This document shows, piece after piece, positions 11,454 to 29,551 of a stretch of 39,121 nucleotides of DNA. Each line of letters begins with the position of its first letter. Position 1 is the first letter of the stretch. The position numbers and the translations under genes were made by a program. The notes beneath the pieces were generated by a model, which saw only the letters and a program-made list of their open reading frames with translations, did not search any database and had not been told where the DNA came from. The stretch lies in UHGV virus genome UHGV-1369668, one strand, 5' to 3'. The DNA is from a virus.

Positions 11454-11778
11454 GCTTGTCACCTTTCTACCCTTTTGTTTTTCTTCACCAGTACCATACA
11501 AAAAAGGCAACCACCTTATTTGGTGGCTACCTTCTTGTTAGGGGTACAATGGTGTTTTTAGCAATTAACCAATTTTATTAATAACATACTAAAAAAAAAA
11601 TATATATGGCTATTTGGGGAAGATTGCCCATTTTTTGCCCGTTTTTGCACGATTTGTTGAAACTGCACAAAAACTCATTTTGACTTTTGTGAACTTTTGC
11701 CACTTGCACTACTGGTATCCCAGTGTTAAGATAAAGGCACAACGAAGCACAAAACAACAAGTTGAAAGGAGCACGAAA

Positions 11779-12687
11779 ATGAAGAAAGATGTTTACGAAA
11801 TAGTTACAGAAAGATTTTTGGAGAAGCTTGAACAGGGCATTATCCCTTGGAAAAAACCTTGGAAAATGGTCGGCGGTGCTTTTCCGGCTTATCCTCTTGG
11901 AAGTAAAAAGCCATACGGATTTATTAACCAGATGTTACTCGATTTTGAGTATGGAGAGTTTGCTACTTTTGAAACTATCAAGAGAAACGGCGGCAAGGTT
12001 AAGAAGGGTGAAAAGTCAAGACTTATCGTTGGATGGATTCACACCACCGAAAAGATAAAGGATGAGAACGGCGAAACGGTCGTTGACGATGATGGCAATG
12101 AACAATATAAAGACAGATTCGCATTGAGATATTATCAGGTATTTAACGTATACACACAGGTTGAAGGGCTTAAGGACAACATCGATATAGAGGACGAGAC
12201 AAGCGCACTAATCGAGTCGGATTTTGTTCCTGGAGATGCTTATCAAATGGCAAATGATATTATCGTCAATTATACAGATAGAGAGCAAATCTCGTTCAAC
12301 AATGGCGATATATCAAACAGGGCTTATTATCTTCCTTCTGCTGATTCAATAACAGTCCCGAATATGTCCCAGTTCGAAGATGTTAACAAGTATTATAGTA
12401 CCGTTTTTCACGAGATGGTTCACTCAACAGGACATCAATCGAGGTTAGATAGAGAACTCGAAAAGAAGGCAGCTCACGGATCTAAGGAATATAGCCGAGA
12501 GGAGTTAGTCGCCGAAATCGGATCCGCCGCATTAATGAACATCTGCGGAATAGAGAACGAAGACACTTTCGAAAATTCGGCTGCTTATATTCAAAGTTGG
12601 TCGAAAGCTCTTAAGGACTCGCCCAAAATGATAGTATATGCTAGTGCTCAGGCACAAAAGGCAGTCGAGTATATTATCGAAAAATAG
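11779..12687 (+). CDS. ardC: ArdC-like antirestriction protein (ssDNA-binding N-domain plus HExxH metalloprotease domain)
   Basis: The N-terminal IPWKKPW...YYQVFNV motif region is typical of the ArdC-N/DUF1738 fold. A C-terminal HEMVHSTGH zincin motif is present. The RBS GAAAGGAG precedes ATG 11779; the track's N-terminal extension from 11614 lacks an RBS and is rejected. Confidence 0.7.
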   Translation: MKKDVYEIVTERFLEKLEQGIIPWKKPWKMVGGAFPAYPLGSKKPYGFINQMLLDFEYGEFATFETIKRNGGKVKKGEKSRLIVGWIHTTEKIKDENGETVVDDDGNEQYKDRFALRYYQVFNVYTQVEGLKDNIDIEDETSALIESDFVPGDAYQMANDIIVNYTDREQISFNNGDISNRAYYLPSADSITVPNMSQFEDVNKYYSTVFHEMVHSTGHQSRLDRELEKKAAHGSKEYSREELVAEIGSAALMNICGIENEDTFENSAAYIQSWSKALKDSPKMIVYASAQAQKAVEYIIEK

Positions 12688-13554: not shown

Positions 13555-13965
13555 TTACAGTTTTATTTTTTTTATAGTCCTTTGAATAATCCTGTGAATA
13601 CTTTGGTCTTCCTTCCCATAAAGCACCGCGATTTTATGCACCCCAACACCTTCAATAAACCTCAGGGACATAATTTCGCGTTTTCGACTGTCCTTGATTC
13701 CTTCGATAGCTTCCGTCACGAGATATTTATTAGCTTCGCTCAGTTTCTTAAGTCTATCGATTTCTTGACGGATTTCCGCGCACATTATGGCACACTTCTC
13801 AACCCGTGAGCTTATGTCATTATTCGATATAGTCACGGGCGATATTTTTTGAGTGATGCTCGTTGCTATAGTCTCCCAACCTTCAAGCTCAAGCTCTAAC
13901 CGCCATATCTCGTGATTTATTGACTTGTATTCATTTAGAATTTTTCTTTTTTGCTCATAATTCAT
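13555..13965 (-). CDS. ArpU/RinA-like late-gene transcriptional activator (sigma region-4-like HTH)
   Basis: 136 aa. The C-terminal REIMSLRFIEGVGVHKIAVLYGKEDQSIHRIIQRTIKKI matches the sigma-70 r4 / ArpU pattern. Its position upstream of the packaging genes is typical for Firmicutes phages. Confidence 0.55.
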   Translation of the reverse strand: MNYEQKRKILNEYKSINHEIWRLELELEGWETIATSITQKISPVTISNNDISSRVEKCAIMCAEIRQEIDRLKKLSEANKYLVTEAIEGIKDSRKREIMSLRFIEGVGVHKIAVLYGKEDQSIHRIIQRTIKKIKL

Positions 13966-14376: not shown

Positions 14377-14580
14377 CTACAACACAAATATCTTATCTCT
14401 TTCATATTCTTCTTCAGAATAATGTTCACACTTATTCGCTCTGCTTCTATGAACATCCTGTCCAACTTGAATATGATGCATTGTGCCATCTCGCATTTCA
14501 TCATAGGAATAATGGCAAGTACACATAAATCCTCTTATAAAGTCGCAATTAACACAATTCTTGCAATCTCTACCAGTCAT
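14377..14580 (-). CDS. Cys/His-rich small protein, paralog 1 (CKNCVNC...CTCH)
   Basis: 67 aa, about 88% identical in DNA to 15967-16176. The CxxCxxC plus CxCH metal-binding pattern is present. Confidence 0.45.
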   Translation of the reverse strand: MTGRDCKNCVNCDFIRGFMCTCHYSYDEMRDGTMHHIQVGQDVHRSRANKCEHYSEEEYERDKIFVL

Positions 14581-14764
14581 AATCTATCCTCTTACCTTTA
14601 ATCTGATTAAGCATAATTTCTGCTACTTCAGGAAGTCTTAAAGATTCCATACAACCATTGTGTAAACCACTTTCTTCATTCCACTTACGAATAGGGCACT
14701 TTTTACAAAGTGTAGAAGTACAAAACTCACCAATCTGTCTTATTGTTAATTCTTTATTGCTCAT
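14570..14764 (-). CDS. Small Cys-rich protein (64 aa)
   Basis: CTSTLCKKCP...HNGC. Overlapping stop/start coupling within the operon. Confidence 0.4.
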   Translation of the reverse strand: MSNKELTIRQIGEFCTSTLCKKCPIRKWNEESGLHNGCMESLRLPEVAEIMLNQIKGKRIDYDW

Positions 14765-14811
14765 ATCTATCCTTTCTCCGCTAAAGTCTTATTTCAATAT
14801 GATTTCCTTTA

Positions 14812-15024
14812 TTAGTCTGCTGCCTTAAATAACTTATTAAATGGACAACTAATGCAAGGTGAATCCTCATCATTGATTAGCCAATCTTCATCCTTGCCTT
14901 CAGGAATAGGCATATTGGGGTACTTGCAATATCCATCACAGATTTCTTGATTTACTTCACAAATAATATCCATTAATTTCATACTTTTATCAATTACTTC
15001 ATCAATAATCCCCATTGCTACCAT
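14812..15024 (-). CDS. Small Cys-rich protein (70 aa)
   Basis: CEVNQEICDGYC...PCISCP pattern. Confidence 0.4.
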   Translation of the reverse strand: MVAMGIIDEVIDKSMKLMDIICEVNQEICDGYCKYPNMPIPEGKDEDWLINDEDSPCISCPFNKLFKAAD

Positions 15025-15507: not shown

Positions 15508-15708
15508 TTAATCGCTCTTCAGTTTATCCACTTTCTTTTTTTCTGGAACAAGGATTATCCTGTTCAAATCGTATCTGCTATTAAGTAACTTATCTCGAAT
15601 CTCATTCCACTGTTTTCTGAAATACATTCTATACAAAATATCATCCATTATCTCTCCTATCCAACCATCGCAAGCGCGGTCTGTTCTTATCTTGTCATTC
15701 TTCCTCAC
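15508..15708 (-). CDS. Hypothetical small protein (66 aa)
   Basis: Coupled ORF within the early operon. Confidence 0.3.
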   Translation of the reverse strand: MRKNDKIRTDRACDGWIGEIMDDILYRMYFRKQWNEIRDKLLNSRYDLNRIILVPEKKKVDKLKSD

Positions 15709-15943
15709 TCCAATCCAATTTTTGACCGCAATTCTGACAGTAATTGTGGCTTACTTTAACGAAATCATTACAATACGGGCAAATATACATTATATATCTG
15801 TTATCTATTTTAGGCTTCTTCGGTATCTGCTTTTCAAGTGCCTTGATTGCCATTTCTAATGTATCTTTTGATATGCAACCATATCCTGTGCCTTTTGCTT
15901 CATAGGCAAGTTTTAATTCAATTATTGCTTCACTCTCTGTCAT
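15695..15943 (-). CDS. Zinc-ribbon protein, MTESEA...KQIPKKP...CPxC...CxxCGQKLDWSE family, copy 1
   Basis: 82 aa. Shares its N-terminal, central and C-terminal motifs with 19546-19797 and 19216-19521. Confidence 0.5.
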   Translation of the reverse strand: MTESEAIIELKLAYEAKGTGYGCISKDTLEMAIKALEKQIPKKPKIDNRYIMYICPYCNDFVKVSHNYCQNCGQKLDWSEEE

Positions 15944-15966
15944 TCTCCGTCGCTCCTTTTTATATT

Positions 15967-16176
15967 CTAAAACACAAATATTTTGTCTCTCTCATATTCT
16001 TCTTCAGAATAATGTTTACACTTATTTGCTCTGCTTCTATGAACATCTTGCCCTACTTGTATATGGTACATTTTGCCATCTTGCATTTCGTCATATGAAT
16101 AATGACAAGTACACATAAAACCTCTTGTGAAGTCGCAATTAACACAATTCTTACAATCTCTACCTTTGTTGCTCAT
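15967..16176 (-). CDS. Cys/His-rich small protein, paralog 2
   Basis: 69 aa, near-identical to 14377-14580. RBS is AAGGAGTGA. Confidence 0.45.
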   Translation of the reverse strand: MSNKGRDCKNCVNCDFTRGFMCTCHYSYDEMQDGKMYHIQVGQDVHRSRANKCKHYSEEEYERDKIFVF

Positions 16177-16183
16177 TTCTCAG

Positions 16184-16321
16184 TCACTCCTTTACTTTGC
16201 ATTTATGCCCTAAACTCGGCTTGAAAAATAATCCGCATTTTTCACATTTGCAAACCGTTGTCTGTTGCCATATATGGCTATTAAACCAAGCCTTTGTTGC
16301 TCTATCATAGACTTCGCTCAT
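16184..16321 (-). CDS. Small zinc-binding protein (45 aa, not in ORF track)
   Basis: MSEVYDRATKAWFNSHIWQQTTVCKCEKCGLFFKPSLGHKCKVKE. The ATG overlaps the upstream stop in a TGATATG arrangement. Confidence 0.3.
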   Translation of the reverse strand: MSEVYDRATKAWFNSHIWQQTTVCKCEKCGLFFKPSLGHKCKVKE

Positions 16322-16322
16322 A

Positions 16323-16745
16323 TCATTCACTCTCCATTTCCTTTAACTTTTGCCCAGCTTCGGCTTGCGTGAGGAATACGGTTTTGCCAAAGTTTTTGAA
16401 ATTCAGCCTAATTCCCTCATAATTGCAAACAAATTGTTGTAATGGTCTTATATCAAACGAATAAACAACAAATTTATTAATTTCATTATCTTCAATGTAA
16501 TATACTGTAGCTCCAATCTTGCAAGGCAACCTCAACAGCAAGCCTTGCTCCTCCAAGTCCTTATACTCTTTGTACGGTTCTAACTCTGCAACAAGCTTTT
16601 TTATACACCTTAAAGCTCTACGCACTACACAATGGCTTTCAGGCGGTTCGCTTTTTCTATCTTCTTTGTCGAATAACTCCTTTACTTCTTTTTTCAAAAA
16701 AGTGTATTCTTCTTCAAATGTCATTTCTCTTGTTAATCTCTCCAT
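16323..16745 (-). CDS. Hypothetical protein (140 aa)
   Basis: The C-terminus ...TQAEAGQKLKEMESE is encoded by the conserved junction element that also occurs at 18148-18185 and 19098-19157. Confidence 0.45.
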   Translation of the reverse strand: MERLTREMTFEEEYTFLKKEVKELFDKEDRKSEPPESHCVVRRALRCIKKLVAELEPYKEYKDLEEQGLLLRLPCKIGATVYYIEDNEINKFVVYSFDIRPLQQFVCNYEGIRLNFKNFGKTVFLTQAEAGQKLKEMESE

Positions 16746-17548: not shown

Positions 17549-17859
17549 ATATTTTGCTCCTTTAATAGTTTTGCTAAATCCATAAGTTTGTAATGTATAT
17601 CAGCTACCATATCTCTTGGTTGTGGGTTTCTATCTCTGTTATTTGAGTCATACACAATCTTTATTGCTTCCACTGCAAAATCGTCAATCGCCTTGGCATA
17701 TCCTTGTCTATATCCATGGTTATGTGCTTTTGACTTCATCTTTTCAAATGCTTCTTTTGAAATCGAATTTTCTTTACACTGCTTCAAAACATCTTCTATA
17801 TCAACACTTGCTAATACCCGACCTTGTGTATCGTTTTCTAAACATAATGTCAATCTCAT
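17545..17859 (-). CDS. Hypothetical protein (104 aa)
   Basis: Its ATGA overlaps the stop of the upstream gene. Confidence 0.4.
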   Translation of the reverse strand: MRLTLCLENDTQGRVLASVDIEDVLKQCKENSISKEAFEKMKSKAHNHGYRQGYAKAIDDFAVEAIKIVYDSNNRDRNPQPRDMVADIHYKLMDLAKLLKEQNI

Positions 17860-18146
17860 TTCTCCTGCTCCTTTAACTGTTCTAATCTCAAATGTAGAGT
17901 ATCAACCAAAATCTCATTATCTAAAGTTTGCAAGACAACACTTTTTGCATCATCAATAGCCTTGTTGTAAAATTCTTTATTTCTATTAATGCAGTATTTC
18001 TTTATCCAATCGCTTTGCTCTTTAGTGAAATGCTGTGGAATTGATAAATCCATTTCCTTGATTACTTTCAGTTCTTCTAACCAATTTGCAATTTGCTCGT
18101 TTGAAACCTCTCTTGCGTGTGCTATTGCTTCATCAATGCTTAACAT
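17856..18146 (-). CDS. Hypothetical protein (96 aa from ATG MLSIDEA)
   Basis: The C-terminus ...RLEQLKEQEK resembles the junction-element tails. The track start at 18155 is a GTG. Confidence 0.4.
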   Translation of the reverse strand: MLSIDEAIAHAREVSNEQIANWLEELKVIKEMDLSIPQHFTKEQSDWIKKYCINRNKEFYNKAIDDAKSVVLQTLDNEILVDTLHLRLEQLKEQEK

Positions 18147-18219
18147 ATCAATCACTCTCCATTTCCTTTAACTGTTCTGCAACTTTCTTTGAAGTTTCAA
18201 TTATATAATCAACAATTTA

Positions 18220-19066
18220 TTACCCTATAAAATCAGTAATACTCATTTGTGCATAAACAGGAAAATCAAGCATTTCATTCTTTGCCCTTGTATAGAAATT
18301 TCTATCGATTTCAAATCCAAATGCGCTTCTTCCAAGATTATGTGCTGCTCTTAATGTGCTACCTGAACCACAACATGGATCAATTACAACATCTCCTTCA
18401 TCTGTAAAAATATTAATTAACTGTTCTAATACTTTCACTGGCTTTTGTGCAGGGTGAATCTTTGGAATCTCTTTACCATCTTTTTCCCACTTGAACCAAT
18501 TGAATATCATGTGTCCTGTCCCCCTGATGTTTTTTCCTTCTTCATCAACCTGACAACCATTTCTAAATTTTGGAAGTCTATCTCGGTACAAAACAAGCGC
18601 ATATTCTGTTGCACCGACAATCCTCATATTTGCTTTCAAAACCTGCGGTGAATAATTCTTAATAAACACAAGCGGAATATAATTCACAAATCCATGTTTT
18701 TTTTGCTGCATCAATCAATGTTTGCATCTGTTCAAATGCACAAAATACAATCATGCATGGTGAATTGCTGCTTCTTCCTCTCTGTAATGGTTTGGTATCA
18801 TCTTTCTTTAGCATCTTGCTGCAGAAATGAAAATATTCATACAGATTAAAATTAAAATCTGAATTAAAAGCAGATTTTCCTGCAAGTTTGCTTTCTCCAT
18901 TTTTATTGTCACCACCTATATACCATGAAGGATTGCTTCCATAGAAATTCGTTCCTACATTATATGGAACATCTGCAATAATAAGCTGTGCAGGTGGTAT
19001 TGCATATTTCTTGTAATTCTGCATTGAATCACGATATATTTCACATTTGATTTTCTTTTGTTTCAT
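18220..19066 (-). pseudogene. Beta-class (CcrM/Hia5-like) N6-adenine or N4-cytosine DNA methyltransferase, frameshifted in an A8 homopolymer
   Basis: The upstream ORF has motif IV (IIADVPYN). The downstream ORF has HPAQKP and motif I (VIDPCCGSGST). The two overlap by about 56 nt. Removing one A from the A8 run at about 18697-18704 fuses them into a protein of roughly 281 aa. Confidence 0.75.
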
Positions 19067-19215
19067 CTTTCACCTCTCTAAATTCTTATCAAGCTTACAT
19101 TTCCTTTAACTTCTGCTCAGCTTCGGCTTGCGTGAGGAATATGGTTCAACTGATTAAACACACGCGTGCGTTTATCGTGCGTTTATCGTGCGTTTTTGTT
19201 CCCTTTGAAATTTCT

Positions 19216-19521
19216 TCAATGTTCTATCTCATAAAGGCTTAGTTGTTCACTCCAATCAATAGCCTGTCCGCAACCTGCACAAAATTTATTCAAGTATTCA
19301 TCCATTCCTACCCAACCGCCACAAATAGGACACGCAAAATATTCTTGAAGCAGTTTGTCTGTTGATTTCATCTCAACAGGCTTTTTCGGTATCTGCTTTT
19401 CAAGTGCTTCCATAACCATGTAGTTTTCTTCAACATCAAATCTATCCATAATTCCAAAGTTTTCTTTTTGTGCTTTTACTTTCTGTAATGCACTTTTTGT
19501 GATTTCAACTTCTCTTATCAT
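19216..19521 (-). CDS. Zinc-ribbon protein of the KQIPKKP...CPxC...CxxCGQ.IDWSE family, copy 2 (101 aa)
   Basis: ALEKQIPKKP...CPICGGW...CAGCGQAIDWSE. Confidence 0.5.
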   Translation of the reverse strand: MIREVEITKSALQKVKAQKENFGIMDRFDVEENYMVMEALEKQIPKKPVEMKSTDKLLQEYFACPICGGWVGMDEYLNKFCAGCGQAIDWSEQLSLYEIEH

Positions 19522-19545
19522 ATCTGTCCTTTCTCTGCTAAAGTC

Positions 19546-19797
19546 TTATTCACTCCAATCCAATTTTTGACCGCAAAATTCACAGTAACTGCTACCAGCA
19601 CAATACCAAGTTTCGTACTGGCTGTTATTACATACAGGACATACATTATATTTTGTAATCTTCTTCGGTATCTGCTTATCAATCGCCATTGCCGACAATT
19701 CCAACGCTTCTCTGTAATCTGCAATATTATCATTGTAATTTGCTTTGATAAGGTCTATTCTCTCGTTGATAAATTTTAATGCTTCACTCTCTGTCAT
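19546..19797 (-). CDS. Zinc-ribbon protein of the same family, copy 3 (83 aa)
   Basis: MTESEA...AIDKQIPKK...CPVCNN...CEFCGQKLDWSE. About 25 bp at each end of the gene is identical in DNA to copy 1. Confidence 0.5.
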   Translation of the reverse strand: MTESEALKFINERIDLIKANYNDNIADYREALELSAMAIDKQIPKKITKYNVCPVCNNSQYETWYCAGSSYCEFCGQKLDWSE

Positions 19798-19850
19798 TCT
19801 CCGGCACTCCTTTACTCATTGTATTTTTCTTTAACTGTTTTGCTATTTCG

Positions 19851-20138: not shown

Positions 20139-20516
20139 TTATCCTTTCTCTAATCTTTTATAAAGCTCATCCTTAAAATCCGATAATAATAATTCGATAT
20201 TATTTGTTATCGCTTCAGGCTCTCTTTTAGCACTGGCAATTAATCTTTTCGAAAATTTTTCAAGCTCTTTCACAACAATATCCTGCACCGTCACCAACTC
20301 GCATATATCCTTTGAGCAAGTTCCAGATATATGATGTACGCAAATCCTGCAGTAATATTTATCATCAATAGCATTACCCTTTAGCTCAAAATGTTTTTTA
20401 CAAGCATTATCGTATGAATATTTACACATCTTCGAATATTTACAACTGCCCTTTTCCTTGCCGCGTTTGCCTGATGCGAATACCTTAAAAAATGCACATT
20501 CACCGCAACTTGCCAT
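20139..20516 (-). CDS. Cys-rich protein (about 125 aa from MASCGEC)
   Basis: CGEC...SCKYSKMCKYSYDNACKKH...CRICVHH...CSKDIC: many Cys/His pairs. Confidence 0.4.
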   Translation of the reverse strand: MASCGECAFFKVFASGKRGKEKGSCKYSKMCKYSYDNACKKHFELKGNAIDDKYYCRICVHHISGTCSKDICELVTVQDIVVKELEKFSKRLIASAKREPEAITNNIELLLSDFKDELYKRLEKG

Positions 20517-20672
20517 TTTCAATCTCCTTCCTGGCGCGCCATGATATAACATGTATTTTCGAATTATTAAATTTAATTAGCTTGCTTATCCAACGATTCA
20601 GAAGGTATAAAAGCTTATTACACATAATCAATAATTTGATAATTGCGCTCATAATATTTACTCTCGTTTTCA

Positions 20673-23860: not shown

Positions 23861-24120
23861 ATATAGCTCCTTCCATATCGTTTTATGAAATCCTGTCTGC
23901 TATGCGTCTTCTCATAGACTAATTGCCCACATATTCTACTTAGCTTGCTAGCAGCAGTACTGCTATGTATTTCGTTATGGCATCTTATACATAGTGGTAT
24001 TACAAGTCCGTCCTCGTCAGCTAATTTTCTGAGTCCCCTGCCAAATACCAAATGATGCATATTATCACTAGGTCTATTGCAAACAGCACATAATTTCTCA
24101 TAATCAGTTATTGTTCCCAT
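23857..24120 (-). CDS. HNH endonuclease (about 88 aa from MGTITDY)
   Basis: CAVC...HHLVF...CIRCHNEIH. Confidence 0.55.
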   Translation of the reverse strand: MGTITDYEKLCAVCNRPSDNMHHLVFGRGLRKLADEDGLVIPLCIRCHNEIHSSTAASKLSRICGQLVYEKTHSRQDFIKRYGRSYI

Positions 24121-24917
24121 AACAAATCCTCTATTCCTATTGGTGCAGTTAGTTTTCTGGTCCTTACACAGTACGGACACGACTCACATCTAATTGGTTC
24201 GCTTTCTCCGTTCCGTATGGATAAATAACTATTCATATTCATCTCAATGTAATTAAGCGCATGGTCTAATATATTTTGAGGTATGTTTATAACAGCAATC
24301 TCTGGATTATCGCTCTTACTTACGGCCGCTATATAACAAGCAAGTTTTTCTCCGGTATTAATCTCAACTATTTTTTGATATAAAGCCAATTGTCCTGTAT
24401 AAAAATAAGCTTCTATAAAGGTTGCATATCCGTAATCCCGTATTTTCCACGCCCTATGTAAATCAGAGACTGTCTTAAAATCGGTAATAAATTTGTGCTC
24501 CATATATGAGTCCATTTTTATTTTCCAATTCGCACCCGCCCAATAACCTGTCATTATTTCCTGCTTTTTTCCTGACATTGCTTGCTGAAACAACTCATCT
24601 TCAAGGGTTCTTGATATCATTTTTTCAGCTTGCTTATAAGGGGCTTTTAATTCGCCCTTTTGAGTAAAAATCTCTGGATTACTCTTTTTGAAATCATCAA
24701 GTGTTCCCTCGTAAAAAGAATCGCAATAACTACCTACTAACATTGGTAAGGTTTTTTCTTCCTGCCACTCACCCTTGCGCATAGCAATATAACGTGCTTC
24801 ACATCCTCTGACTTCCATATATCCGATACAATTCAAAAAATCATGAAACGAACAGTATATATCATTAGCCTCTTTGCTATAATAGTTATCTTTTGTTAAA
24901 ACAAACTCGTCACTCAT
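24108..24917 (-). CDS. PD-(D/E)xK-type exonuclease (partner of RecT) with a C-terminal Cys cluster
   Basis: Lies immediately downstream of recT. The C-terminus contains CESCPYC. The call is by synteny and composition. Confidence 0.45.
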   Translation of the reverse strand: MSDEFVLTKDNYYSKEANDIYCSFHDFLNCIGYMEVRGCEARYIAMRKGEWQEEKTLPMLVGSYCDSFYEGTLDDFKKSNPEIFTQKGELKAPYKQAEKMISRTLEDELFQQAMSGKKQEIMTGYWAGANWKIKMDSYMEHKFITDFKTVSDLHRAWKIRDYGYATFIEAYFYTGQLALYQKIVEINTGEKLACYIAAVSKSDNPEIAVINIPQNILDHALNYIEMNMNSYLSIRNGESEPIRCESCPYCVRTRKLTAPIGIEDLLWEQ

Positions 24918-25695
24918 TAGCAGGTACCTCTGTTATACTTCCGTCTTCCTCAACAACTGTGTCGAATACGTTTACAACCGCATCAGATACAGGCTTATTA
25001 ACTCGGTTCTTGTCCAGATCGCTACTTTCATCCCATGCAAGCCTTGCCTCTACACTTTCAAAATCTATTTCAATGTATTTGCAAAGCCTTCTTAATACTG
25101 TTTTTATACACATTTGGTCAAAAGAGTTTTTCCAGGCTTTACCATTTGCCATTTTTGAATAGTTGGAGCGAACTGCGTTTATATCGCTTACCGACATTGC
25201 TTCATACTGCATTCCGCCGTCCTTATATGTAACTACTGCAAACGCACCTATAATATCTCCACCATTAAACGGCAAAGGCGAAAAATTAATTGATTGCTCT
25301 CCGTCAATAATCCTCTCTTCGAAGATGTCGCCTTCCCTAACTACTTTTGCATAGATATCTAATACCGGTCGGATAGAATACTTTTTTGCAATTTTTATTT
25401 CACCTCTATAACTGGTCTGAAACTCAATTGACTGTCCGTATGGTATTAAATAACACTCGTCAGCTAAAAAATCCAAGCCTAAATAAGCTCCTTTTACCAG
25501 ACCCTGAATAAGCATTTGCTGATTGATTTTTGCAAGCTCAGGCTTATCGTTTAGTACTGCAATTGCGTTCTGCACAAAGCGCGTTTTATTAAACTCCTTA
25601 GGCAGGGCAGTTTCAATAGACACAAGCTTATCCATAAGACAATCCGATAACTTTGCCTTGACTTCATTTTTCTCTTGTACAACTAACTCACTCAT
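24910..25695 (-). CDS. recT: RecT-family single-strand annealing protein
   Basis: CYLIPYGQSIEFQTSYRGEIKIAKKY matches the RecT signature (xPYG...YRG). Followed by an exonuclease gene. Confidence 0.6.
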   Translation of the reverse strand: MSELVVQEKNEVKAKLSDCLMDKLVSIETALPKEFNKTRFVQNAIAVLNDKPELAKINQQMLIQGLVKGAYLGLDFLADECYLIPYGQSIEFQTSYRGEIKIAKKYSIRPVLDIYAKVVREGDIFEERIIDGEQSINFSPLPFNGGDIIGAFAVVTYKDGGMQYEAMSVSDINAVRSNYSKMANGKAWKNSFDQMCIKTVLRRLCKYIEIDFESVEARLAWDESSDLDKNRVNKPVSDAVVNVFDTVVEEDGSITEVPANE

Positions 25696-27786: not shown

Positions 27787-27807
27787 CTCATCATGGAGGA
27801 CAAAGCA

Positions 27808-28260
27808 ATGGAAAATTTTGGCAAAAACTTAAAGCGAATTAGAACTAATAAACTATTATCACAAGAGGCATTAGCTTCTACTATGCAAATGACACAAGCA
27901 AATATTTCGTCCTGGGAAACAGGCAGAACAGAACCTTCTATTAGTGATATATACAAATTGAGTCAAATATTGGAATGTACCATTAGTGAATTGACAGGCA
28001 CAGAACAGCTTGGACGAAGCAATACACTCTCTGATGATTCAAATACTTTAGAAAGTCCATACGACCGTATTTTACAATTGTCAGATAAACTAACAAGTCA
28101 AGAACTAATAAGATTACAGAAGTTATTTAAGATTAAAGCTGAATATAAGCAAAATCTCGAACAATTGGAACAGCAAAAGCAACTATATGAAGAAGAGTAC
28201 AAAAAGCACACAAGCGATTTCTTGAACGGATATAGGCCTAAAAAGGATGGATTTATATGA
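27808..28260 (+). CDS. CI-like XRE-family repressor (about 150 aa)
   Basis: HTH LSQEALASTMQMTQANISSWETGRTEPSISDIYKLSQIL. Divergent from Cro and adjacent to the integrase. Confidence 0.65.
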   Translation: MENFGKNLKRIRTNKLLSQEALASTMQMTQANISSWETGRTEPSISDIYKLSQILECTISELTGTEQLGRSNTLSDDSNTLESPYDRILQLSDKLTSQELIRLQKLFKIKAEYKQNLEQLEQQKQLYEEEYKKHTSDFLNGYRPKKDGFI

Positions 28261-29246
28261 AAATAGAAAAAGTAGGGAATCAGTTCCGAGTACGAAAAAT
28301 GATTAATTGTATAAGGTACACCATGACTTTTGATCATGAGCCAAAGCAAAGTGAGATAAAACGCGAATTGTCGCGCTTAATGCGTGAGCAGCCAAAAGAC
28401 GATACGCCAAAGGGTACTTTTGAATATTATGCTAAAAAGTATATGCAAATACAGGATAATATATTGTCACCATCAACACTTCGATCGTATGGATTTATAT
28501 TAGATAAGTTAAGCAGTGAATTTAAGCGAAAACAACTTAAAGATATTACTCAGGCTGATGTACAGGCAGAAATAAATATAATTGCTAAAAACAAAAGTCC
28601 TAAGACAGTTCGTAACAATCACGCATTCATATCAGCTGTTATTAAAATGTATCGCCCTAATTTAATACTGCATACCAAATTGCCTCAGAAAATCAAGAAA
28701 CAAAAAACAGTTCCATTAAGGGATGATATAAAGGCAGTTTTAGATGAGGTTAGAGATACAAGATATTATATTCCTTATCGCCTTGCCATATATGGCCTAA
28801 GAAGGGGCGAAATTTGCGCGATAACGGCCCTTGATATATCTGATGCCAATATTCTTACCATAAACAAAGATAAGGTCTATAATGGCGAAAAAAAGTGGGT
28901 AATTAAGCCATATCCCAAAACCACCGATTCTCAAAGGGCCATATACATTGATAATGAGCTTGCTGATTTAATAAGAAAACAAGGTTATGCTTTTAACGGG
29001 CACCCTTCCAGACTGTACGATAATCTTAAACATGTACAGGATAGACTTGGCATCGAGCGGTTTAGATTCCACGATTTCAGGGCGTATATGGTAACAGAGC
29101 TTTCACAAGCCGGATATTCAGAAGCGGATATTATGAAAATGGGCGGATGGTCTACACCTAATATTATGAAATCCGCGTATCGTCAATCTCGTATCCAAAA
29201 GGAACTCGAAACACAGAAAAACATATCCTCTACACTGACGTTATAA
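28257..29246 (+). CDS. int: Tyrosine site-specific integrase
   Basis: 329 aa. The C-terminal catalytic region has R...HDFRAY...GGWSTPNIMKSAYRQ (the R-H-R-Y family pattern). Followed by attP. Confidence 0.85.
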   Translation: MKIEKVGNQFRVRKMINCIRYTMTFDHEPKQSEIKRELSRLMREQPKDDTPKGTFEYYAKKYMQIQDNILSPSTLRSYGFILDKLSSEFKRKQLKDITQADVQAEINIIAKNKSPKTVRNNHAFISAVIKMYRPNLILHTKLPQKIKKQKTVPLRDDIKAVLDEVRDTRYYIPYRLAIYGLRRGEICAITALDISDANILTINKDKVYNGEKKWVIKPYPKTTDSQRAIYIDNELADLIRKQGYAFNGHPSRLYDNLKHVQDRLGIERFRFHDFRAYMVTELSQAGYSEADIMKMGGWSTPNIMKSAYRQSRIQKELETQKNISSTLTL

Positions 29247-29372
29247 GACAAACGTTTTTTGACAAATTTTTTGACAAATTTTTTGACAAACGTTTTGACA
29301 AAAAATCTTGTAAAGCCCCATTTTACAAGGGTATGAGGATTTTTACGAGAAAACGTTTTGACAAATAAAAAA

Positions 29373-29455: not shown

Positions 29456-29551
29456 CTATAAAGTCAATAATTTCAAGGCTTTTCAGATTTTTGACAAATT
29501 TTTTGACAAATTTTTTTTTTTGAAAAGCACTTCTAAGACTCTGTTTTTACA

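Follow-up and report, generated by a model that had tools for sequence, protein, structure and literature searches.

The temperate tailed phage UHGV-1369668, a 39 kb genome from a gut metagenome analysed here over its full length of 39,121 nucleotides (hereafter the window), carries two families of small cysteine-rich genes: family A with two copies and family B with three. The most probable explanation of how these genes are related is that old copies of small metal-binding genes have been reshuffled between phages by short-homology recombination at conserved DNA patches. A first reading of the sequence (the original prediction) had taken both families for recent gene duplications. Paralogy within each family is supported by alignment and by a comparison of the window with itself, which recovers the two family A genes with an expect value (E) of 7e-66 and two of the family B genes, B1 and B3, with E 3e-16. 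The supposed youth of the copies did not hold up: neither family shows the sister paralogs and the low synonymous divergence that would mark a recent duplication within the genome.

The three family B genes lie on the minus strand. B1 (15695-15943) encodes 82 amino acids with a type I zinc ribbon (CPYC...CQNC), B2 (19216-19521) encodes 101 amino acids with an N module starting MIREVE and a type II ribbon, and B3 (19546-19797) encodes 83 amino acids with a type III ribbon; B3 and B2 stand in tandem, 24 nucleotides apart. No two of them have the same hairpin or the same type of ribbon, but all share the motif (A/I)(L/I)(E/D)KQIPKK...CPxC...CxxCGQ(K/A)(L/I)DWSE. The architecture originally proposed for the three open reading frames (ORFs) is correct with respect to their positions and to the common hinge, CPxC and CxxCGQ motifs, but the MTESEA start ascribed to all of them is missing from B2. 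In the family alignment, an invariant MTESEA start is followed by a hypervariable hairpin, an invariant ALEKQIPKKP hinge, one of several discrete types of zinc ribbon and an invariant end, which consists of CGQ(K/A)(L/I)DWS and an acidic tail. The three copies share 39-49% amino-acid identity; their synonymous divergence (dS) is saturated at 1.1-1.5, and the ratio of non-synonymous to synonymous divergence (dN/dS) is 0.3-0.6.

At the DNA level, the constant segments of the proteins correspond to short patches. At the 5' end, B1 and B3 share a run of 24 identical nucleotides, CGGAGAATGACAGAGAGTGAAGCA, which covers the spacer of the ribosome-binding site as well as codons one to six and is contained in a patch of 38 nucleotides at 92% identity (15922-15959 in B1, minus strand, comprising the ribosome-binding site and ATGACAGAGAGTGAAGCA; 19776-19813 in B3). 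Dozens of unrelated loci have the same start sequence. The 3' ends share a run of 27 identical nucleotides, TTGCGGTCAAAAATTGGATTGGAGTGA, within a patch of 48 nucleotides at 85% identity (15699-15746 in B1, minus strand, ending TGCGGTCAAAAATTGGATTGGAGTGA; 19544-19591 in B3), and a 26-mer of this end is present in 34 loci with up to three mismatches. The roughly 25 base pairs of identical DNA first noticed at both gene ends are thus real for B1 and B3 (24 and 27 nucleotides) but not for B2, with its MIREVE start and a 3' end of only about 72% similarity. The middle of the genes is divergent as described insofar as its two halves are 59-72% identical, but it encloses a third conserved patch, the hinge. 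The hinge core AAGCAGATACCGAAGAAG (18 nucleotides, the KQIPKK codons) is the same at 18 of 18 positions in B1 and B3 and at 17 of 18 positions when compared with B2. The full hinge patch of B1, GCACTTGAAAAGCAGATACCGAAGAAGCC, which codes for ALEKQIPKKP, occupies 15813-15841 on the minus strand, the copy in B2 lies at 19379-19407, and the core in B3 is found at 19660-19677, also on the minus strand. When up to four mismatches are allowed, the 29-mer of the hinge occurs in 63 of about 93 loci searched.

The start, the hinge and the end are conserved as DNA to a greater extent than the protein sequence demands. With the amino acids fixed and codons drawn at background usage, the probability of identical codons is about 0.006 for the start, 0.008 for the hinge and 0.0009 for the end; the patches are not due to chance. 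Codon choice was compared with the background in 77 family B genes from independent IMG/VR loci, de-replicated at 85% nucleotide identity. In the hinge, the preferred codons are Leu CTT (84% observed, 26% in the background), Glu GAA (97% and 67%), Lys AAG (80% and 42%), Gln CAG (93% and 63%), Ile ATA (77% and 33%) and Pro CCG (57% and 27%), with G statistics of 33-93. A similar skew is found at the 3' end, where TTA reaches 78% against 26%, AGT 67% against 22% and GAT 90% against 68%, while the start mostly reads ATGACAGAGAGTGAAGC(A/T), with GAG in 39 of 47 cases against a background of 33%. The cysteine codons provide an internal control that the linker is conserved as DNA. Of the four invariant ones, three use TGT and TGC at background frequencies (G 0-2.4), and only one shows a mild skew (TGC 66% against 45%, G 14.0); therefore, synonymous sites at these positions are largely randomised.

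Chimeric genes in other phages break at the hinge patch. The gene P0003, on contig L098, is composed of the N half of B3 (114 of 120 nucleotides, 95%), the complete hinge core (18 of 18) and the C half of B1 (110 of 120, 92%). By BLAST, positions 580-735 of this contig equal 19815-19660 of the window at 94.9%, and the match stops at 19660, the last base of the hinge. In the gene P0073, the N half of B3 (115 of 120 nucleotides) is followed by a novel, unrelated ribbon and then by the 3' end of B2 with its downstream spacer at 95.5%; on contig L099, positions 426-591 equal 19826-19661 of the window at 92.9%. Both high-identity segments thus end at a shared conserved patch, at 19660 and 19661 respectively. 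P0073 was recovered by two assemblies, L099 (from ENA, with a SPAdes-style contig name) and L100 (from Logan). The combination of a B3-type N module and a type I ribbon was found again in P0004, which represents eight member sequences, and P0019 joins the N module of B2 to a type I ribbon. In addition, L098 brings together, side by side, three segments (14593-14356, 19815-19660 and 15812-15677) between which the window has long distances.

Reassortment is not limited to these examples. In a set of 201 family B members, 51 N clusters and 27 C clusters combine with each other, with violations of the four-gamete condition in five pairs; N modules of the B3 type were found with three C types and those of the B2 type with two. 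The middle of family B, first suggested as a possible target-specificity region, consists of two independently assorting modules split by the conserved hinge. Family B is modular, and diversifying as had been suspected, but the mechanism that the data support is the exchange of cassettes at three linkers and not the divergence of a single middle. Copy number also varies among related phages. When about 6 kb to either side of a family B gene was searched in 80 IMG/VR loci, a single copy was counted in 65, two copies (often in tandem or overlapping) in 14 and three copies in one.

Two other sources of diversity were considered and rejected. A diversity-generating retroelement acting on the variable hairpin finds no counterpart in the window: there is no reverse transcriptase among the ORFs of at least 100 amino acids scanned with PHROGs or Pfam (all but 38797-39099), and the self-comparison lists no repeat resembling a template repeat/variable repeat (TR/VR) pair. 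Positive selection was set aside since pairwise dN/dS is below 1 everywhere. The N modules of P0003 and P0073 differ from that of B3 by five to six substitutions, mostly amino-acid-changing and clustered in the hairpin loop, which are too few for a selection test.

In family A, A1 (14377-14580, minus strand) encodes a small Cys/His-rich protein of 67 amino acids with the pattern CxxCxxC...C(x)C...H...H...C and matches the profile A.hmm with E 2e-39; A2 (15967-16176, minus strand) encodes 69 amino acids and is located immediately upstream of B1. CKNCVNC...CTCH is present in both. The identity of about 88% over some 210 base pairs reported for the two genes was confirmed, at 89.4% over 198 ungapped nucleotides (14377-14574 against 15967-16164). 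The proteins are 87-90% identical, and the similarity is confined to the genes and ends at their borders. According to the Nei-Gojobori method, the copies are separated by 16 synonymous and 7 non-synonymous differences, with dS 0.77, dN 0.043 and a ratio (omega) of 0.056. Because of this high dS and low omega, both copies must be regarded as long separate and under strong purifying selection. At synonymous sites, A1 is nearer to the copy on L098 (dS 0.33), and A2 is nearer to the copy in the unrelated pig-gut phage L013 (dS 0.39). In the quartet of these sequences, all four informative sites and one indel of two codons group A1 with L098 and A2 with L013, and none groups A1 with A2. On the most probable reading, the copies of both families are old paralogs or separately acquired copies, put together in this phage lineage by recombination.

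The family itself is rare, with 36 clusters in a word-indexed search and 23 clusters at 50% identity in an exhaustive HMMER scan of 1.84 billion representatives. Among the loci fetched, two copies occur only in the lineage of the window, that is, in the window and its close relative L009. The gene is single-copy in the pig-gut phage (L013/L014), in the IMG/VR loci L103-L106 (full-length), on the contigs L101 and L102 from metagenome-assembled genomes (MAGs) and on L098, as well as in L107-L109, in which it takes the form of a shorter, partial A-like ORF. The adjacency of A2 and B1 in the window and of an A gene and a B gene on L098 raised the possibility of an obligate gene pair. This was rejected because the A genes of L103-L106 and L107-L109 have no family B gene in their surroundings, searched to a distance of about 5 kb or, on some short contigs, less, and because family B is mostly found without family A.

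The data on both families can be accommodated by a single process. The three constant segments of family B would serve as homology patches of about 25-50 nucleotides, at which homologous recombination would swap N and C cassettes between the copies in one genome and also between co-infecting phages or prophages. Similar short conserved junctions connect unrelated neighbouring genes. The likely catalyst of the exchanges is encoded by the phage itself, in the form of a RecT-like single-strand annealing protein (24910-25695, minus strand; phrog_148, E 8e-52, with PF03837 on the same gene) and its partner exonuclease (24108-24917, minus strand; phrog_1227, E 4e-65, and PF12684). Mosaicism of this type was shown experimentally to depend on phage Rad52-like and RecT recombinases, which accept short (about 30 base pairs at minimum) and diverged homologies and transfer small fragments more frequently than entire modules (PMC3945230). 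That short conserved sequences at gene boundaries underlie mosaicism was proposed for lambdoid phages and is an established idea; for phage mosaics in general, homologous exchange at such boundaries has long been debated against illegitimate recombination followed by selection (PMC3029335).

Repeats at gene junctions in the window fit into the same picture. The junction at 19518-19550 (minus strand), which includes the stop of B3, a ribosome-binding site and the start of B2, recurs with 94% identity over 33 nucleotides at 14761-14793, upstream of the unrelated gene 14570-14764. A second junction (16319-16383, minus strand) comprises the 3' end of the gene 16323-16745 (QKLKEMESE*), which overlaps the next start. 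Its part 16319-16360 is repeated at 18144-18185 (86% over 42 nucleotides) with no ORF behind it, and the 3' end of the same gene reappears as a truncated remnant without an ORF at 19098-19146 (94% over 49 nucleotides). These repeats are short boundary sequences common to neighbours that are not homologous, along with what past exchanges have left behind; the remnants of the second junction look like scars of earlier recombination or deletion. The ORF-less QKLKEMES(E/D)* remnants are located in the spacer before the methyltransferase (19098-19146) and before the gene 17856-18155 (18156-18185). The spacer downstream of B2 also contains a tandem repeat of AACGCACGATA in about 2.5 copies (19161-19196). 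On L099, this spacer is present at 714-847 (95.5%), about 190 nucleotides upstream of a gene for a tyrosine recombinase of 338 amino acids (1035-2051). The window lacks the recombinase gene at that position, and beyond it L099 continues with the sequence that follows B1 (15686-15651).

Several points weigh against recombination at the patches as the explanation. The contigs with the chimeras are metagenomic and short (1.4-2 kb), and the family A quartet consists of only four sites and one indel, which are few but unanimous. The codon test ignores phylogeny, and shared ancestry of the patches could inflate the skew; such inflation is disfavoured because the cysteine codons of the same genes remain near background. 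Part of the preference for Lys AAG could reflect the avoidance of A-runs in GAA-AAA and AAA-AAA contexts, which could not explain the other skewed codons. Host RecA, or illegitimate recombination with subsequent selection, could yield the same products as the phage's RecT. Finally, neither the A nor the B proteins have a significant match in PDB, Pfam or PADLOC.

One competing explanation is a recent duplication within the genome. On this view, the interior of the genes would have diverged fast under diversifying selection, whereas the ends would still be too young to differ. The tandem of B3 and B2, the nearly identical ends of B1 and B3, the presence of two or three copies in 15 of the 80 related loci and the almost exclusively amino-acid-changing differences in the hairpin loop of the B3-type N modules would all suit such a history, but they are confronted with saturated dS in family B and a value of 0.77 in family A, and with an overall dN/dS below 1 (0.06 for A, 0.3-0.6 for B). 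Moreover, both A1 and A2 have nearer relatives in other phages, and one identical N module is combined with various C modules. Nor are the conserved ends leftovers of a young duplicate: the patches are family-wide, occurring in dozens of unrelated phages, and coincide with the breakpoints. The idea is thus largely refuted, and we regard it as very improbable.

The conservation of the patches could also result from selection on messenger RNA or translation (the context of initiation, a bias against slippery A-runs, or ribosome pausing between the two domains to assist folding of the ribbon), with recombination as a by-product. Such selection may contribute to the 5' patch, which holds the ribosome-binding site and the first codons, known targets of selection at the messenger level, and to the lysine codons, where AAG in place of AAA at the E-K and K-K steps avoids runs of A5-A6. 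The position of the hinge exactly at the domain boundary of the AlphaFold2 (AF2) model would agree with a translational pause. As a full account it is unlikely: A-run avoidance cannot account for CTT, ATA, CCG, TTA and AGT, a rare-codon pause is made unlikely by the frequencies of ATA (33%) and CCG (27%), which are not rare in these phages, the breakpoints of two independent chimeras fall on the patch with single-nucleotide precision, and non-homologous neighbours have common junction sequences as well. It would be more surprising still if the chimeras were metagenome mis-assemblies at short repeats and the patches merely the product of protein conservation and codon bias. While L098 and L099 are short and P0003 is known from one contig, P0073 was recovered by two different assemblies (L099 and L100), the design of P0004 is shared by eight members, and the cysteine control demonstrates that the skew is specific to the patches. 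The identical runs of 18-27 nucleotides are also shorter than the final k-mers of usual assemblers. An artefact is therefore highly improbable.

Short-homology recombination at the patches, as preferred here, is an ordinary kind of phage mosaicism and an already-known phenomenon, seen unusually clearly. The common features are segments of about 120-160 nucleotides at 92-96% identity bounded by short conserved patches, junctions shared by non-homologous genes, an encoded RecT and exonuclease, and the exchange of small fragments. The present case differs in that one patch is intragenic, at a domain boundary, and in that this patch is codon-conserved in a family of thousands, behaving as a standing linker and not as an occasional remnant of homology. 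Variable segments are likewise shuffled between conserved linkers in the T4-type PeSL regulatory cassettes and in the pilE/pilS mini-cassettes of Neisseria. These systems, which serve here as a lead, resemble family B in their variable cassettes flanked by short constant DNA and in the several possible donor copies per genome; unlike them, the window gives no sign of a dedicated initiation signal (a G-quadruplex, G4, or a promoter stem-loop), of directional gene conversion or of a phenotype.

A bolder proposal, which we consider doubtful, is that the patches are kept because they are useful as recombination linkers, making phrog_10714 a self-shuffling cassette family. If so, RecT-type annealing would continually create new combinations of hairpin and ribbon from the several copies per genome, pooled with those of co-resident prophages. 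This would amount to a diversification mechanism inherent in the genes themselves, without an enzyme devoted to it, resembling pilin mini-cassette variation, with a role in an arms race such as anti-defence or superinfection exclusion. Regardless of this, the genes offer a clean natural example of homologous exchange at boundary sequences, with breakpoints at nucleotide resolution and a linker that is intragenic and placed at a domain boundary. The result is useful more than surprising, and it flags two uncharacterised families for biochemistry: family B as a very large early family of gut phages that has no Pfam model and family A as a rare family with five conserved cysteines.

The AF2 model of B1, with a predicted local distance difference test (pLDDT) score of 85, consists of two helices (residues 3-16 and 26-39) forming a hairpin, an extended hinge and a beta zinc ribbon, whose strands follow residue 45 with pLDDT 85-89. 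The ribbon is predicted to have two CxxC knuckles on beta hairpins and a Cys4 site, and CPxC and CxxC are invariant in sets of 31 and of 77 sequences. Its sole structural neighbours are generic zinc ribbons (Zn_ribbon_3 PF13248, DZR PF12773, bL32-type and RanBP2-type), which share the two knuckles and the short beta hairpins. However, the best score of B1 against Zn_ribbon_3/DZR is 22.1 bits, below the gathering cut-off of 27, with B2 and B3 lower; the fold search in PDB gave only such generic ribbons at E of 0.9 or more, none of them significant (E<=0.001), and these families have no counterpart of the N-terminal hairpin or of the EKQIPKKP hinge. In BFVD, a fold search yielded nothing but automatically labelled, uncharacterised homologs from gut viromes, PADLOC (anti-phage defence and anti-defence) only unrelated models at E 0.0017 or weaker, and the string QIPKKP was not found in the literature searched.

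The uncharacterised phrog_10714, which the three proteins match over hinge and ribbon (E 2.7e-13 for B1, 1.7e-14 for B2 and 5.5e-7 for B3), agrees with them in size class and phage origin as well. Its entry gives no function and does not contain the modular N and C cassettes or the DNA patches described here; its neighbour phrog_16351 is labelled 'DNA binding protein'. A profile search yielded at least 7,613 family B clusters at 90% identity, none of which is named or has a Pfam domain. Our best guess is that family B proteins are early-expressed adaptors, in which the ribbon and the constant segments would form a scaffold and the variable hairpin would contact a partner from the host or from a competing phage. 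Some relatives deviate from the basic layout: P0085 has two hinge-plus-ribbon units in tandem, and longer members have QYRAIGTPEEC repeats inserted between ALEK and EKQIPKKP. B2 itself has a C-terminal read-through tail, QLSLYEIEH, the corresponding stretch of which is non-coding at the P0073 locus.

In family A, the CxxCxxC motif and two distal cysteines are invariant even in the most distant homologs. The AF2 model is weak, with a pLDDT of 67; a fold search with it against PDB gave nothing significant, the iron-sulfur (Fe-S) small subunits of benzylsuccinate-type synthases appearing only at E 0.6-0.8, and the protein has no sequence match in PDB. Judged by its five invariant cysteines, family A is perhaps best described as a small protein that would bind zinc or an Fe-S cluster. 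A fusion was seen in each family: P0172 (173 amino acids) carries a family A domain, and the gene at 5345-6004 of L091 (219 amino acids) carries a family B unit. Both are joined to the same type of C-terminal module, with GKWI/GEWI and a terminal CPNCGAKM zinc ribbon.

All five genes lie on the minus strand in a stretch of small ORFs, flanked by the replication genes and, on the other side, by a sigma-like late regulator (13555-13965). According to PHROG and Pfam searches, the long early operon on this strand encodes the RecT-like protein, the exonuclease, RusA, and DnaD-like and DnaC-like loaders, and about 30 small ORFs follow downstream, from 20.5 kb to 14.3 kb. An integrase (28257-29246) and a repressor (27793-28260) are found on the plus strand, and the remaining genes include the terminase, portal and capsid genes, with holin and endolysin elsewhere. 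The guanine-cytosine content of the window is 33-43%. A megablast search with the region from 13.5 to 21 kb of the window against 50,697 deposited phage records gave no match, and no Rfam family or structured element was found anywhere in the window. The host is guessed to belong to the Clostridia because the only MAG matches of family A come from Ruminococcus sp. and a Lachnospiraceae bacterium. Four further small cysteine-rich ORFs without a family belong to the same operon (14570-14764, 14812-15024, 16184-16330 and 20139-20552). The third, an ORF of 48 amino acids, immediately precedes a family B gene on L099, the place that is taken by A2 in the window.

In a gene for an N6/N4 DNA methyltransferase (18220-19066), a frameshift at eight consecutive A (18697-18704) leaves two overlapping ORFs (18659-19066 and 18220-18714). 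The A-run is also seen in both other assemblies covering the region (L002 and L003), and the gene may be a fixed pseudogene, phase-variable, or expressed by slippage. An ArdC-like anti-restriction gene (11614-12687, plus strand; phrog_7245, E 6e-70; PF08401 and PF18818) lies between the late regulator and the terminase and is oriented against the genes around it. The largest ORF of the phage (29552-34846, minus strand, 1,764 amino acids) and the adjoining ORF of 349 amino acids (34858-35907) have no match in PHROGs at E<=1e-5 or in Pfam at E<=0.001. Just beyond the 3' end of the integrase gene, direct repeats of TTTTTGACAAA with a period of 12 nucleotides occupy 29256-29308 and 29488-29516, one copy of 29 nucleotides being 100% identical at a distance of 232 nucleotides; they may be arm-type or attP-associated binding sites. 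Lastly, many repeats with a period of nine nucleotides (TCTCCTTTATCTCCT) at 280-1300 on the minus strand code for collagen-like Gly-X-Y triplets, interrupted by four or five conserved units of 68 nucleotides, in what is presumably a tail-fibre-type protein.

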